From an uncultured Bacteroidales bacterium (GTDB lineage Bacteria; Bacteroidota; Bacteroidia; Bacteroidales; Paludibacteraceae), in assembly GCA_902784585.1 (NCBI GenBank), contig CACZVM010000011.1, positions 5,824 through 69,823 of the forward strand: a stretch of 64,000 nt of DNA, read 5' to 3'. Both the position numbers and the translations under genes were made by a program. How positions within the stretch are numbered: the first letter of the stretch is position 1; every line of letters starts with the position of its first letter. Positions 13,429 to 34,954 of the stretch are shown here, piece after piece. Below the pieces are notes generated by a model. That model was given only the letters and a program-made list of their open reading frames with translations, made no database searches and was not told the origin of the DNA.

Positions 13429-13502
13429 GGTTCGGTAGCTCAGTTGGATAGAGCAACAGCCTTCTAAGCTGTGGGTCGCGGGTTCGAATCCCGCCCGAAT
13501 CA
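13429..13502 (+). tRNA. tRNA-Arg (anticodon TCT)
   Basis: Hand-folded cloverleaf. The acceptor is GGTTCGG/CCGAATC (one G-T pair). The D-arm is TAGCTCAGTTGGATAGAGC and the anticodon loop is CTTCTAA. The T-arm is GCGGG-TTCGAAT-CCCGC, the discriminator is A, and CCA is not encoded. Confidence 0.9.
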
Positions 13503-31262: not shown

Positions 31263-31300
31263 AAAAAAATGGCATACAAACTTGCGTATGTCATTTTTTT
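31263..31300 (+). terminator. Intrinsic terminator after the GHL10 gene
   Basis: The 8-bp stem TGGCATAC/GTATGTCA is flanked by A7 and T7. Confidence 0.55.
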
Positions 31301-31312
31301 GTAGTACCTTTG
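31282..31312 (+). promoter_or_regulatory. Promoter for the zeta TA pair
   Basis: TTG is at 31282-31284, inside the loop of the preceding terminator. TACCTTTG is at 31305-31312. Confidence 0.55.
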
Positions 31313-31333
31313 CAGTCGCAAAGGTTTAGAATT

Positions 31334-31489
31334 ATGGATGATTATCGTTTCATAAACATTGATCAGGAGCCGACAGAGGAACAATTGGCACAATTGATGC
31401 ACGAAGTAGCCGTGGAGGCAAAAGAGCGCCACGATCGTGCTCATGCGGCATATTTTGAGCATATACGTCAAATGGCGCAAGCATTATGA
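31334..31489 (+). CDS. Putative antitoxin of the zeta-toxin-like pair
   Basis: A 51-aa acidic helical product, MDDYRFINIDQEPTEEQLAQLMHEVAVEAKERH... Its stop overlaps the start of the downstream kinase (ATGA), and its own promoter lies 22 nt upstream. Confidence 0.4.
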   Translation: MDDYRFINIDQEPTEEQLAQLMHEVAVEAKERHDRAHAAYFEHIRQMAQAL

Positions 31490-32082
31490 GAAAGCCTGTT
31501 TTGATAGTAATCGCCGGCCCTAACGGTTCTGGGAAGACTTCCACCACGCGTTTGGTGATCAAACACGAGTGGGCAGAGCAGTGTGTGTATATCAATCCTG
31601 ACGAGATCGCACAAAGCAAGTTCGGAGACTGGAATGATGTGAATGCCGTGCGTCAAGCGGTTGAGTACTGCGAAGAATGGCGGGAACAACTCTTGCGTGA
31701 GCACAAAGATTTTATCTTTGAAACGGTACTATCTTCCGATGGAAAAGTGGATTTTTTGAGACAAGCGAAAGAAGAAGGCTATTTTATTCGCATGTTCTTT
31801 ATCTGCACCGAATCACCTACCATCAATGCAGCTCGAATAGCAAACCGCGTCATGGAAGGCGGGCACGATGTACCTATTCAAAAGATTATATCACGTTACG
31901 AGAAAGCGATAATCAATGCCATCAAGGTAGCCGGCTTTGCAGATAGAGCATATTTCTATGACAACTCCATCGACAATCAAACCGCAAAATTATTATTCCG
32001 CACCGTTGATGGTAATCTCGCTAAACAATACGTAGAGGCACTCCCTCAATGGACGGAAACAATTTTTGAAACAATACGATAA
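31486..32082 (+). CDS. Zeta-toxin-family P-loop kinase
   Basis: It has the Walker A IAGPNGSGKTS. The size (198 aa) and layout are typical of the Zeta_toxin/AAA_33-like family, and it is translationally coupled to the small upstream ORF. Confidence 0.65.
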   Translation: MRKPVLIVIAGPNGSGKTSTTRLVIKHEWAEQCVYINPDEIAQSKFGDWNDVNAVRQAVEYCEEWREQLLREHKDFIFETVLSSDGKVDFLRQAKEEGYFIRMFFICTESPTINAARIANRVMEGGHDVPIQKIISRYEKAIINAIKVAGFADRAYFYDNSIDNQTAKLLFRTVDGNLAKQYVEALPQWTETIFETIR

Positions 32083-32382
32083 ACCCTCGTCGCTTGCGGA
32101 CGTAAAACAGCAAGGACAAGCGCTGGTGAGCGCTACATAGAAAAAGCGTTTGCTTTATTTGAGGAAACTGTTCATTTCTCGACAACTTGAATTTTGGCTT
32201 TCCCGAATACTGCGAAACGCTCACGTGTTCACGTGGGCTTTTTGCGTATATTGGAGCCAAAAGGGAGTCGAGACCCGAACAAACCAATATAGAAGGCAAA
32301 AAGTTCACGTTTTTGTGTGACCCATATACAATTTATTACTTAAAACCGACGAGGCGATGGGATATAACTGCCAACAACTATA

Positions 32383-32832
32383 ATGAAAAAGATATTGTTT
32401 ATTATTCTGGCTGCGCTGCCACTATTGTTTGCCTCATGCGAAAAAAAGAACGATACGAGTGTGGACAATCCAAAGAGTGATATAGGAGTGGAATGGATTG
32501 TTTATGAAAATAATGGAGAAAATTATGCCCCTTGTATGTATTTTCAAGATGGAAATCTTGTATGCCTTGAGGAAAGTAATGTTATCTGGGATAATTGGGT
32601 TTCATCTGTCGGCAAGGTAAAAAATTTGAAGGATGTCAACTATGTACCATCGGACTGGGGGAAATCAATAAAGATTGAAATAGGTCATGGCTATGTTCTT
32701 AAATACCATGAATCGTATTCTTATACTTGCTTATACACCCGTCTCCGTGTTTTGGAATACATTGACAAAGGAGAAGCAAAGGGTTATAGAATTCGTATTC
32801 AGCAGAAGTGGGATCCTCTGAGAGATGAATAA
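32383..32832 (+). CDS. Hypothetical lipoprotein
   Basis: The signal peptide with lipobox is MKKILFIILAALPLLFASC. The gene is AT-richer than its surroundings. Confidence 0.5.
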   Translation: MKKILFIILAALPLLFASCEKKNDTSVDNPKSDIGVEWIVYENNGENYAPCMYFQDGNLVCLEESNVIWDNWVSSVGKVKNLKDVNYVPSDWGKSIKIEIGHGYVLKYHESYSYTCLYTRLRVLEYIDKGEAKGYRIRIQQKWDPLRDE

Positions 32833-32840
32833 ATTTGCTT

Positions 32841-32904
32841 TGCACAAACGGAAATCCGTTGTGTGCAATGAGACAGTGGCGGCAGAAATGTCGCCGCTGT
32901 TTTT
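32841..32904 (+). terminator. Double-hairpin terminator module T1 after the lipoprotein gene
   Basis: Hairpin TGCACAAACGG-AAA-TCCGTTGTGTGCA is followed by GGCGGCA-GAAA-TGTCGCC (32878-32895) and GCTGTTTTT. Confidence 0.55.
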
Positions 32905-33140
32905 AATGCCGCATGGACTACATTCGCATTTATCGTGTATCGGGCGGGCGAAGCGATAGCGAGACGCGAGGGCGAAGAAATCGTTCGAGCGAAGCGAGAT
33001 AAGAATTGTCCGCACGCAGAGGGCGGACGCGAAGGACGACTACCGCCAACGTCCGAGCTAACAAAAGGAGCGCGGCTCATCCGATGAGCCTGAAAGAGAA
33101 GAAAGACAAGCGGCGGCAGAGATGTCGCCGCCTGTTTTTT
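32905..33140 (+). ncRNA. Candidate structured RNA unit U1 (unclassified)
   Basis: Paralog of U2. It ends in hairpin GGCTCAT-CCG-ATGAGCC (33074-33090), a purine tract GAAAGAGAAGAAAGA, hairpin GGCGGCA-GAGA-TGTCGCC (33112-33129) and a T-tract. Confidence 0.35.
33112..33140 (+). terminator. GNRA-capped terminator hairpin T2
   Basis: GGCGGCA-GAGA-TGTCGCC followed by GCCTGTTTTTT. Confidence 0.55.
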
Positions 33141-33430
33141 CTCGCAACTAACGTTACGAGCACAGGACAAAAAGGCTACACTCCGCATGGCGCCACATCC
33201 GCATTGAGCCTCTTCCGGGCGGGGCGAGACGTTTGGCTATGCTGGAATTTGATTCCAGCGCAATAGACAAAGGCTCGGACGGAAGGAGGCGAACAATGTC
33301 CACATGCAGAGGGCGGAAGCGAGACGCTAAACCGCCTATGCGGCGAGCAAACAAAAAGCGGAGCGGCGGATCACATCCGCCTGAAAGGGAAGAAAGAACT
33401 AGCGGCGGCAGGGATGTCGCCGCTTATTGT
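33141..33430 (+). ncRNA. Candidate structured RNA unit U2 (unclassified)
   Basis: Same 3' module as U1 with compensatory changes. It has hairpin GGCGGAT-CAC-ATCCGCC (33365-33381), the tract GAAAGGGAAGAAAGA, and hairpin GGCGGCA-GGGA-TGTCGCC (33404-33421). Confidence 0.35.
33404..33430 (+). terminator. GNRA-capped hairpin T3 (abuts the stop of the convergent 144-aa gene)
   Basis: GGCGGCA-GGGA-TGTCGCC followed by GCTTATTGTT. The T-tract is weaker than in T1 and T2. Confidence 0.4.
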
Positions 33431-33864
33431 TATCCGAAGGGGCGTTCTTTGCGGATGACGGCGCGGATGAAATTGTCTATGCGGGCATAGATGAGGTAGT
33501 TGCCATCTTTGTCCTTCGGAGCAATTGGATCCGGTGTGCCGTTGAGCTGGGCATAGAAACGGGCTTTATAGCCGTCTAAGAGGGCCTGTTTGTCTGCCGG
33601 AAGGGGCGTTTTGAACTTGAGGGAGTCGATGAGTTCTTTGGCGAAATGTGAAGCTGCACCGAACTGCGACATATTAGCCCGTTCACGGATAAGAGCCGGG
33701 GAAGTCTTGAAATTACGAGGAGCCGGTTTGTACGCCTCCAGACGACCGACTTTGGTTATATTGCCTTCATAGTCCCGAAAATGCTTGCGACGCTCCACCA
33801 ATCCTTCTTTGGAATGTGCTCCGCGCATCTCCAAGATGTCGGGTGTGTGTTTGATTTTAGCCAT
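33430..33864 (-). CDS. Hypothetical protein (144 aa, basic)
   Basis: An intact ORF, MAKIKHTPDILEMRGAHSKEGLVERRKHF..., with its own canonical promoter and a ~135-nt leader. I recognise no motif. Confidence 0.45.
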   Translation of the reverse strand: MAKIKHTPDILEMRGAHSKEGLVERRKHFRDYEGNITKVGRLEAYKPAPRNFKTSPALIRERANMSQFGAASHFAKELIDSLKFKTPLPADKQALLDGYKARFYAQLNGTPDPIAPKDKDGNYLIYARIDNFIRAVIRKERPFG

Positions 33865-33944
33865 ATTTACTATTCGTAGAATTTAGTTAATTCTTAATCA
33901 AGGAGGTCTTTAGTAGCAGTTTATCTGCAGATTACGCCGATAAT

Positions 33945-34000
33945 GACGCACTTATCACGTACTTATCACCAACTTATCACGCACTTATCACGCACTAATT
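33945..34000. repeat. 11-bp periodic repeat (ACTTATCAC core x4) in the leader of the 144-aa gene
   Basis: GCACTTATCAC GTACTTATCAC CAACTTATCAC GCACTTATCAC GCACTAATT. Confidence 0.75.
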
Positions 34001-34005
34001 TTGCG

Positions 34006-34036
34006 CAAAATTACTACATTTTTTCGGTTTTTGCAA
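34006..34036 (-). promoter_or_regulatory. Promoter for the 144-aa gene 33430..33864
   Basis: On the minus strand TTG is at 34034-34036 and TAATTTTG at 34006-34013. The -7 box is half of the perfect palindrome TAATTTTGCGCAAAATTA. Confidence 0.5.
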
Positions 34037-34208
34037 GAAAAAACGACCGATTTTTTAAGCATTCTATACTATATTATATATAAAATATATAATATACATA
34101 TTGCAGGCTTTTTTGAGAAAGAAAGAGGGACTCGCAACAAAAGTTACGAGCACGGGACGAAGAATTGCGATAAAATATACTATTTTTAATAAAAAATAGC
34201 GTAAACTC

Positions 34209-34239
34209 TTGCACATGTCAAAAAAAAGCAGTAACTTTG
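34209..34239 (+). promoter_or_regulatory. Promoter for the NifU-like/GGGtGRT operon
   Basis: TTG is at 34209-34211 and A8-GCAG-TAACTTTG at 34232-34239. Confidence 0.6.
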
Positions 34240-34294
34240 CACCGCAAAATGTGTGAAACATAAATTTTTAAACAAACAATACATTTAATCTAAC

Positions 34295-34954
34295 ATGATT
34301 TACTCGAAAGAAGTACAAGAAATGTGCGTTGTAGCGAAGGGTCCGAAGCATGGCCCGGCACCGATTCCCGAAGAGGGCAAATGGGTGAAGGCTACTGAGA
34401 TCAAGGACATCTCGGGTATGACGCACGGTATCGGTTGGTGTGCTCCGCAACAGGGTACATGCCTCGTGGAGACCATCGGTTGCTCGGGCATGACCCACTC
34501 GGCTGCTATGGCCGCAGAGATTCTGCCGGGCAAGACCATCCTTGAGGCACTGAACACCGACCTCGTTTGCGACGCCATCAACACCGCGATGCGCGAGTTG
34601 TTCCTGCAGATCGTTTACGGACGTACGCAGAGTGCGTTCAGCGAGGGCGGTCTGACCATCGGTGCAGGTCTGGAAGACCTCGGTAAGGGACTCGTCAGCC
34701 AGTGCGGTACGCTCTACTCCACCAAGGCTAAGGGCGTTCGTTACCTGCAGTTAACCGAAGGTTACATCACCAAGGAGTTCCTCGATGAGAACAATGAGGT
34801 TTGCGGTTACGAATACGTACATATGGGCAAGTTCATGGACGCTGTAAAGAAGGGCATGGACGCCAATGAGGCACTGAAGAGCGTTACCGGCACCTATGGT
34901 CGTACGACCAAGGAGCAAGGCGCAGTTAAATCAATTGATCCACGCAAAAACTAA
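34295..34954 (+). CDS. NifU/IscU-N-like Fe-S scaffold-related protein (partner of GGGtGRT protein)
   Basis: Cys-containing N-terminal region (GIGWCAPQQGTCLVETIGCSGMTHSAAMAAEIL...). It has a strong promoter and lies 12 nt upstream of the GGGtGRT gene. Confidence 0.55.
   Translation: MIYSKEVQEMCVVAKGPKHGPAPIPEEGKWVKATEIKDISGMTHGIGWCAPQQGTCLVETIGCSGMTHSAAMAAEILPGKTILEALNTDLVCDAINTAMRELFLQIVYGRTQSAFSEGGLTIGAGLEDLGKGLVSQCGTLYSTKAKGVRYLQLTEGYITKEFLDENNEVCGYEYVHMGKFMDAVKKGMDANEALKSVTGTYGRTTKEQGAVKSIDPRKN

Follow-up and report, generated by a model that had tools for sequence, protein, structure and literature searches.

Structured intergenic repeats are well described in Proteobacteria and Firmicutes; to our knowledge, they have hardly been described in Bacteroidota and not at all in the uncultured rumen and gut lineages of that phylum. 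This study concerns a non-coding interval (positions 32841 to 33430) in a 64-kb stretch of DNA from an uncultured Bacteroidales bacterium, hereafter the window (all 64,000 nucleotides), in which two co-oriented paralogous units lie between a lipoprotein gene and a gene encoding a 144-aa protein. Comparison with other loci identifies these units, on sequence evidence, as members of an uncatalogued multi-copy family of structured, mosaic intergenic elements in rumen and gut Bacteroidales and not as two private RNA genes, an outcome that a first-pass annotation of the interval had not foreseen. The proteins of the window cluster at an identity of at least 90% with proteins of Paludibacteraceae and Bacteroidales metagenome-assembled genomes (MAGs), and a Paludibacteraceae genome is the probable source of the window.

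Several described systems resemble this family in part. The bacterial interspersed mosaic elements (BIME) and repetitive extragenic palindromes (REP) of enterobacteria likewise combine palindromes and specific linkers in a mosaic, often at the 3' ends of genes and with differences between strains, and they are thought to act both as RNA (3'-end protection and termination) and as DNA. In contrast to BIME and REP, to which it has no sequence relation, the present family has stems that vary from hairpin to hairpin, arrays in direct orientation, a purine-rich strand, and no GTAG; BIME and REP, for their part, have no counterpart of the conserved 160-250-nt core with its long-range pairing. ERIC and BOX are non-coding repeats of 100-300 nt that occur in either orientation between genes and adopt a stable fold when transcribed; BOX is modular (boxA-boxB(n)-boxC), and ERIC may carry optional internal inserts. 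ERIC (enterobacteria) and BOX (Streptococcus pneumoniae) are from another phylum and show no sequence similarity to the element, whose core, instead of forming a long imperfect palindrome, folds into several helices and contains single-stranded segments that do not vary.

Closer in taxonomy are the CGTC-tagged REPs of Bacteroidetes. They form short stem-loops in which A-T pairs occupy fixed places in the stem, and they have no dedicated transposase; their tag has often decayed to TGTC, and many of them lie downstream of genes and are plausibly transcribed (PMC3733652). Their tag terminates a stem of 8-9 bp that has a 4-5-nt loop and a CCA tail, whereas the hairpins of the element have 7-bp stems with A-U and U-A next to a 3-nt loop, and a GAC(R) motif 6-8 nt away. 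The FopS/GibS RNAs of Bacteroides form a paralogous multi-copy non-coding family, some members of which are derived from 3' untranslated regions (UTRs) (PMC11697453). FopS RNAs are about 65-70 nt long, with canonical sigma-ABfr promoters and a conserved 5' seed, whereas the cores described here are 160-250 nt long and have no promoter box and no recognisable seed, a distinction drawn from the description of FopS and not from its sequence. The Rfam families ROOL, GOLLD, and raiA resemble the element in their occurrence in uncultured rumen bacteria and in their conserved junctions with covarying stems; however, none of them gave a match even at a permissive threshold, and the element is smaller, multi-copy, and mosaic.

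The two units were present between the lipoprotein gene and the 144-aa gene as the first-pass annotation had reported, on direct reading of positions 32400-34100. The similarity between them had been placed in their last ~130 nt; they can in fact be aligned from end to end, at 242 and 292 nt, with a column identity of 77%. Further copies, for which a search had been proposed, were found by several routes. A metagenome scan with the pattern GTCCNCANGCAGAGGGCGG-N12-22-CCGCC returned 29 loci (homologous loci are referred to below by L numbers), about 23 of which were clear homologues, almost all in rumen-type samples. A genome scan with an AACAAAA-containing pattern gave 20 chance hits and one true copy, in the Bacteroidales MAG RUG644. 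Profile searches with nhmmer revealed a tandem pair of copies behind a lipoprotein gene in L043, in the same layout as in the window, and three copies within 6.8 kb in L052, one in each gap between opposite-strand genes. The element was also carried by L077, L078, and L079, which were obtained through homologues of the 144-aa protein and were free of any choice of DNA pattern; such protein-anchored loci hold full, disrupted, and truncated copies.

In all, about 30 related copies were found outside the window, on rumen and gut metagenome contigs, in the one MAG, and at the protein-anchored loci. A profile built from 18 copies outside the window matched exactly two places in the 64 kb, both on the plus strand, at 33178-33357 and 32907-33066. 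The identity of each window unit to copies on other contigs was 0.74-0.75, compared with 0.69 to the neighbouring unit; the units are thus as near or nearer to foreign copies than to each other, and the pair is not a recent local duplication. The densest occurrence, among loci of 1-14 kb and the 64-kb window, was that of three cores in 6.8 kb. A literature search found neither the sequence nor similar repeats. The collected copies constitute a ready seed alignment for an Rfam-type model.

Each copy contains a core of about 160-250 nt. Its consensus begins with ACAC-GCCGCAU, the helix P1 (GGG-CUACA-CCC), GCAUUGAG, the 5' strand of P2, and GGGCGGGG (box X1); it continues with an optional variable arm (P3), GACGGA, the 3' strand of P2, GCGAAU, and H1 (GUCCGC-ACGCAGAGG-GCGGAC), and it ends with AGCGAAG, the 5' strand of H2 (4-5 nt), UAAA-CCGCC-UAU, the 3' strand of H2, and CGAGCC. 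P1 is a small hairpin in which compensatory changes were seen by inspection. P2 closes a junction that bears the GGGCGG box and the optional variable arm; it took the forms CACCUCGC/GCGAGGGG, CACUUCGC/GCGAAGGG, CCUCUUCC/GGAAGGAGG (unit 2 of the window), CCCGUAUC/GAUACAGG, and GCUAAC/GUUAGC, and five of its eight pairs varied on both sides. H2 is a helix of 4-5 bp whose 12-nt loop holds CCGCC, the complement of GGGCGG. Seven forms of H2 were observed (GCGG/CCGC, GGAC/GUCC, GGGC/GCCC, GGGG/CCCC, GGGC/GUCC, GGACG/CGUCC, and GGAUG/CAUCC), with all four pairs varying on both sides and 92% of cells paired; an exact 4-bp H2 complement was present in the copy's own sequence in 24 of 28 copies, compared with 13% in cross-pairings.

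For the whole core structure, none of 500 shuffles reached the observed covariation score in an alignment that was hand-assembled in blocks, with the variable arm removed and N-padded, which favours the structure somewhat. The pairing was abolished when the partner columns were slid, and the sequence between the covarying helices was nearly invariant. The compensatory changes in the helices across copies, as counted against shuffles and cross-pairings, bear out the selection on base-pairing that had been proposed from the two units alone.

The conserved GGCGG/CCGCC stem of the first-pass annotation stood in part: the boxes are present, and the partner is ambiguous, CCGCC fitting either GGGCGG box, with the variants favouring the upstream one. 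RNAalifold preferred the H1 hairpin together with pairing of CCGCC to the upstream GGGCGG. In three copies, H1 was swapped for another hairpin, GGCGC...GCGCC in L043b and L079 and GUCCUAUC/GAUAGGAC in L052c. L043b and L079 retain the upstream GGGCGG and the CCGCC, which favours the RNAalifold model over a local GGCGG/CCGCC stem. Being invariant, the partners do not discriminate between these models, and a local GGGCGG/CCGCC stem, with a pseudoknot, is a possible alternative conformer. The AACAAAA block, formerly listed as a shared element, is not conserved in the family. We also rejected a closing helix between a 5' CCGC and a 3' GCGG following AACAAAA, because that GCGG is part of the next module and is missing in many copies.

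Strings of small hairpins surround the cores and also occur inside them as the P3 arm. Each of these hairpins has 4-5 variable base pairs followed by A-U and U-A and a 3-nt loop, and is followed by a purine-rich linker, often with AAURGAC. More than 30 distinct perfect stems were collected for this module, and the intergenic gaps of L052 each hold about 12 hairpins with AAURGAC-type linkers. Hairpin A of the window units is one of the more than 30 covarying members of this generic module. The double compensatory change described in it earlier was confirmed, with GGCUCAU-CCG-AUGAGCC in unit 1 (33074-33090) and GGCGGAU-CAC-AUCCGCC in unit 2 (33365-33381) differing at two compensated stem positions. 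Across eight aligned 3' modules (hairpins A and B), 97.8% of the cells were paired, five pairs varied on both sides, and none of 500 shuffles scored as high.

Hairpin B has the GC-rich stem, short loop, and T run of an intrinsic (Rho-independent) terminator. Its three occurrences, with loops GAAA, GAGA, and GGGA, were recovered with the pattern GCGGCGGCAGNGATGTCGCCGC (up to 3 mismatches), which in the 64 kb matched only at 32876, 33110, and 33402, all on the plus strand, and had no match in 100 shuffles. A terminator scan likewise gave plus-strand sites at 32876, 33110, and 33401 (10 sites found versus 2.7 expected). One G·U pair was invariant in all eight aligned copies, and all four loop variants (GAAA, GAGA, GGGA, and GGAA) were GNRA; the T tail was good for copies 1 and 2 of the window and weak for copy 3. 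The invariant G·U pair, the GNRA loops, and the T tails fix hairpin B as a plus-strand terminator, in agreement with the strand specificity suggested earlier.

The number of units varied between strains. Sibling contigs, obtained by exact-protein look-up of the two flanking genes, exhibited four forms of the locus. Four of them (L003, L010, L011, and L015) carry two units as in the window. Two (L004 and L016) carry a single unit, in which unit 1 continues into the tail of unit 2, with the junction inside hairpin B. Five (L001, L002, L006, L008, and L009) carry no unit, and a gene encoding a 193-aa secreted protein replaces both cores and the cassette of zeta-toxin and lipoprotein genes. In the last three (L012, L013, and L017), two units are present and the 144-aa gene is replaced; hairpin B of their unit 2 shows a compensated change from G-C to A-U. 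These four forms indicate that the locus is hypervariable, and the junction inside hairpin B is the signature of homologous recombination between repeats. In the unit-less strains, hairpin A, the purine linker, and hairpin B come directly after the 193-aa gene as the sole remnant at that position, and this block is a module that can stand without cores. Hairpins A and B and the GGCGG/CCGCC element had been taken for one RNA domain; they are separable modules that elsewhere follow protein genes directly (L001 and L032).

Mosaicism was also evident outside this locus. Copies were cut off at gene junctions, and one was interrupted (L078). An optional insert of ~30 nt, flanked by GAA, was common to copies with different P2 and H2 types, which points to exchange between copies. 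The arrangement is that of BIME-type repeats: small palindromes and recurrent linkers occur extragenically in variable order, and modules are reassorted between copies. The genes adjacent to the copies were unrelated and in either orientation; they presumably include genes for lipoproteins and secreted proteins, prfB, rpsF, and a GtrA-like gene, as named by eye from N-terminal sequences. The survey of neighbours revealed no transposase gene beside any copy and no gene consistently linked to the element, save a recurrent family of ~140-aa proteins. The -7 promoter box of a divergent gene lay 110-500 nt upstream in 17 of 29 copies. On the element strand, a TAnnTTTG box was almost never present upstream (4 or 5 chance-level exceptions among the 29 copies).

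On these findings, we lean towards the interpretation that the units belong to a BIME/ERIC/BOX-like family of structured mosaic repeats, which would here be read through as structured 3'-UTR RNA and reshuffled by recombination. Read-through on the plus strand from the lipoprotein gene would yield nested transcripts ending at the three terminators, and the fold would act, if it acts at all, as RNA, as a stable 3' end, an insulator, or a protein-binding structure. Other copies would likewise be transcribed wherever they lie within a transcription unit. The copies would spread and be reshuffled through recombination or gene conversion between them, as in BIME, ERIC, and BOX, and the units would not be independently promoted genes. 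The family joins a sequence-conserved covarying core and strings of variable but perfectly paired hairpins to strain-variable loci of lipoprotein, secreted-protein, and toxin-antitoxin genes, and the element accounts for assembly breaks and spurious calls of open reading frames (ORFs) at such loci.

Several observations weigh against this interpretation. The 64-kb window holds just these two copies. The DNA search pattern required H1 and the GGGCGG/CCGCC boxes, so that their invariance is partly by construction; in the pattern-independent loci L077 and L079, both CCGCC and the upstream GGGCGG are preserved, but H1 is replaced in L079. The folding energies of the cores were only weakly better than those of shuffles (z from +0.7 to -3.4) and were alike on both strands. 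The small hairpins contained too few mismatches for a census of G·U against A·C to serve as an indicator of strand, and the C·A mismatches in hairpin C, which lies between the window units, and in the L032-type P2 helix are G·U on the minus strand. The plus strand is favoured by the purine-rich linkers and tandem G·A pairs, and the strand of the core and small hairpins is less certain than that of hairpin B. Finally, strongly conserved single-stranded segments beside covarying stems are a classical signature of functional RNA, which selfish repeats do not usually show.

That signature fits a second explanation, which we regard as a possible though unlikely one: the core would be a functional RNA expressed from multi-copy, independent non-coding RNA genes and acting as a protein- or ligand-binding scaffold, a ribozyme, or a conformational switch based on alternation of CCGCC between the two GGGCGG boxes, with the hairpin strings and terminators as accessories. 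Invariant junction and loop sequences beside covarying stems, plus-strand terminators with GNRA loops and G·U pairs, tandem G·A pairs in extensions of P2, and purine-rich linkers are in accordance with such a function, as are the two mutually exclusive pairings open to CCGCC. A precedent for multi-copy small RNAs exists in Bacteroidota, namely FopS with 14 copies and another family by transposases (PMC11697453). Nevertheless, independent expression is difficult to reconcile with the near absence of TAnnTTTG boxes upstream, and the plus-strand terminator is missing in many copies (L052). Truncated and chimeric copies are frequent, H1 and H2 are damaged in unit 2 of the window, and no gene is consistently associated with the element. 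Moreover, the copies with type-2 H1 have no second GGGCGG box, and a switch would thus not be universal.

A bolder form of this explanation, which we advance with considerable doubt, is that the core could be a new class of complex-folded functional RNA in uncultured Paludibacteraceae-like Bacteroidales, with four helices, a long-range GGGCGG:CCGCC contact whose alternative partner may make it a conformational switch, and invariant purine-rich junctions. Together with the small-hairpin strings, it could constitute a multi-copy RNA-protein system, in which it might bind or sequester a hairpin-binding protein or supply the RNA part of a recombination system that shuffles accessory lipoprotein and toxin-antitoxin cassettes. 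If the family does act as RNA, it would represent a new motif class.

If it acts as DNA, it would point to a so far undescribed source of genome plasticity in bacteria that are abundant in the gut and rumen. In this third explanation, which we consider improbable, the element would be mobile or recombinogenic at the DNA level, its hairpins would serve in single-stranded DNA as substrates of an HUH or tyrosine transposase (as in REP/REPIN-RAYT systems) or of a recombinase, and the RNA fold would be incidental. Compensatory evolution of hairpins is reportedly also found in REPINs. The mosaic arrays of small perfect palindromes, the presence or absence of copies by strain, and the truncation at gene-cassette junctions suit a DNA element, as do the enrichment in hypervariable accessory loci with toxin-antitoxin and lipoprotein genes and the orientation independent of neighbouring genes. 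A (C/T)GTC sequence also occurs near the palindromes on the minus strand, and CGTC-tagged REPs have been reported in Bacteroidetes (PMC3733652). However, GTAG tags are absent, neighbouring hairpins differ widely in stem, unlike those of REP families, and no copy adjoins a transposase. Only one change in copy number was open to reconstruction, and it was a homologous recombination within hairpin B; moreover, REPs do not look like a 160-nt core that contains long-range pairing and GNRA loops.

The last explanation, that the units derive by decay from the 3' ends of duplicated protein genes or are ordinary, partly bidirectional terminators with chance similarity, is highly improbable, and for the cores it is effectively refuted. 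In its favour, the hairpin A-linker-hairpin B block does follow the 193-aa gene directly in unit-less strains, and on the minus strand the purine tract resembles a pyrimidine tail that the convergent 144-aa gene would have behind its hairpin B. Against it, neither at the nucleotide level nor in translation do the cores resemble the 193-aa gene or the rest of the window, the indels between the units are not multiples of three, the ORFs have no family hits and one spurious homologue, and about 30 unrelated intergenic sites share the conserved core. The similarity to the 193-aa gene region is confined to the hairpin A-linker-hairpin B module, and decay from the 3' end of that gene was rejected accordingly.

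The ORFs of the interval, which had been dismissed as spurious, are indeed non-coding. Those on either strand of the units had no Pfam hits, the indels leave no common reading frame between the units, and a search of a 129-aa minus-strand ORF against 5.8 billion proteins matched a single spurious ORF.

The units had also been described as matching no known RNA family, and covariance-model scans supported this. With the 4227 models of Rfam 15 at the gathering threshold, the only hit in the whole window was the tRNA gene at 13429-13502. At E <= 10 in 32700-33600, the best scores were 27.7 bits for M23 (threshold 41.2) and 22 bits for PrrB/RsmZ (threshold 44); both are too low, and M23 is a 5'-UTR motif of peptidase genes. 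Rfam 15 gave just an unrelated DUF805b hit in 20 homologous loci and no match in the L052 arrays at E <= 1. ARAGORN found no tRNA or tmRNA gene in 32000-34500, and plasmid, phage, and viral collections gave no match.

Several classes of element were considered, and all but the first of those below were rejected. A tagged REP or REPIN does not fit: 32833-33432 contains no GTAG, and the GAC(G/A) motif lies 6-8 nt off the stems; standing at that distance and not at the stem end, the motif falls outside the definition of tagged REPs (PMC3733652). For a miniature inverted-repeat transposable element, a flanking terminal pair is lacking: within 32700-33600, only the copies of hairpin B take part in inverted repeats. 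For an integron attC site, neither RYYYAAC nor GTTRRRY occurs in 32833-33432; the two motifs are mutual reverse complements, so that both strands were covered. A riboswitch or cis-regulatory leader was rejected on account of the unrelated neighbours in either orientation and because a co-oriented downstream gene, where there is one, has its own promoter after the element. A type III antitoxin (ToxI-like) was rejected likewise, the units being only 77% alike, 242 and 292 nt long, and located downstream of the zeta-toxin and lipoprotein genes.

All features of the interval described below are on the plus strand. After the stop of the 149-aa lipoprotein gene (32383-32832), a hairpin and the first hairpin B precede unit 1 and its 3' modules, which are followed by hairpin C, unit 2, and the modules of unit 2. 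The spacing from start to start is 234 and 292 nt. Exact matches to GCAGAGGGCGGANGCGA stand at 33016 and 33306 and to the purine tract CCTGAAAGNGAAGAAAGA at 33089 and 33380; this tract and the block GCAGAGGGCGGA each have exactly two occurrences. The initial hairpin, TTGCACAAACGG-AAAT-CCGTTGTGTGCAA (32840..32868, from sequence reading), takes the place held by hairpin A in the units. Hairpin B copy 1 (32876..32904, GAAA loop, T5 tail) is the intrinsic terminator of the lipoprotein gene.

The core of unit 1 spans 32907..33066 (leave-out profile E = 4e-21). It comprises P1 (GGA-CUACA-UUC, 32915-32925), the GGGCGG box X1 (32942-32947), the optional ~30-nt insert (about 32975-33004), H1 (GUCCGC/GCGGAC, 33008-33028), and H2, in which GGACG (33034-33038) pairs with CGUCC (33050-33054) by complementarity within its own sequence, around the CCGCC box Y (33043-33047). 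Hairpin A of unit 1 is followed by the purine-rich linker UGAAAGAGAAGAAAGACAA (33091..33109) and by hairpin B copy 2 (33110..33140, GAGA loop, T6 tail), an intrinsic terminator. Hairpin C, CUCGCAAC-UAAC-GUUACGAG (33141-33160), and the CACAGGAC after it occupy 33141..33168, with a second copy at 34131-34158.

The core of unit 2 spans 33178..33357 (leave-out profile E = 7e-28). Its P2 pairs CCUCUUCC (33209-33216) with GGAAGGAGG (33281-33289); the other elements are box X1 (33217-33222), a variable-arm hairpin (33240-33260) with CAAUAGACAAAG after it, H1 with two mismatches (33298-33318), and box Y (33332-33336); H2 is weakened to ACGC against GCGG. With P2 fully compensated and H1 and H2 impaired, unit 2 looks like a partly degraded copy. 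After its hairpin A come the purine-rich linker UGAAAGGGAAGAAAGAACU (33382..33400) and hairpin B copy 3 (33401..33432, the hairpin itself at 33401-33424), which has a GGGA loop, a 10-bp stem, and a weak T tail. This copy abuts the stop codon (33430-33432) of the 144-aa gene, which is convergent and spans 33430-33864 on the minus strand.

At 34113-34165, ahead of the 219-aa/GGGtGRT operon, lie the purine tract GAGAAAGAAAGAGGGA and, after it, the second copy of hairpin C with CACRGGAC, which shares 87% identity with 33141-33171 across 31 nt. Both copies of hairpin C carry the C·A mismatch that is G·U on the minus strand, and the second copy was scored as terminator-like on the minus strand in the terminator scan.

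Other modules recur around the hairpin arrays. In L052 (380-4100, minus strand), L050, and L077 (4590-4800), the conserved palindrome GGGATTTTTCTGTGAAAAAT separates divergent promoters from the beginning of the hairpin arrays, and two more recurrent conserved modules are CUCGCCGAG-RNAG-CGGCGAGGAAUGGAC and CUCCGCGCUAUYACGCGGAGCAGRAAACG. In the interrupted copy of L078 (2770-2845, minus strand), H1 and the 5' region of H2 are replaced by ~75 unrelated nt, whereas the 3' end CCUACACCGCGAGUCC is kept; this core is either the target of an insertion or a chimera.

The cassette upstream of the units (31289-32832), which comprises a small ORF, the zeta-toxin gene, and the 149-aa lipoprotein gene, is low in GC (0.36-0.44, compared with 0.55-0.60 in the flanks). 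The gene for the 193-aa secreted protein that replaces it elsewhere is truncated in L007. The sequence TAAATTTG (32830-32837), which overlaps the stop codon of the lipoprotein gene, fits the Bacteroidetes -7 consensus TAnnTTTG and is the sole plus-strand box of this type within 700 nt upstream of the units; it may start a short RNA or may be a chance match.

The 144-aa protein is part of an uncharacterised family, for which 171 homologues were counted and which neither Pfam nor NCBIfam covers. Members of this family, as in L043 (9391-9804), L044 (500-937), and L070-L079, are recurrently located near copies of the element. Elsewhere, the family occupies a variable locus between a BatA/MoxR operon and a gene for a cadherin-like protein of ~3200 aa, with adjoining toxin-antitoxin pairs, and element copies are also found near it at these other variable loci. 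In the window, ACTTATCAC(G) is directly repeated four to five times at 33943-33995, upstream of where the minus-strand 144-aa gene starts, and these repeats are conserved upstream of a homologous gene in L077 (4880-4945). Candidate roles for them are the binding of a regulator or that of a leader element.

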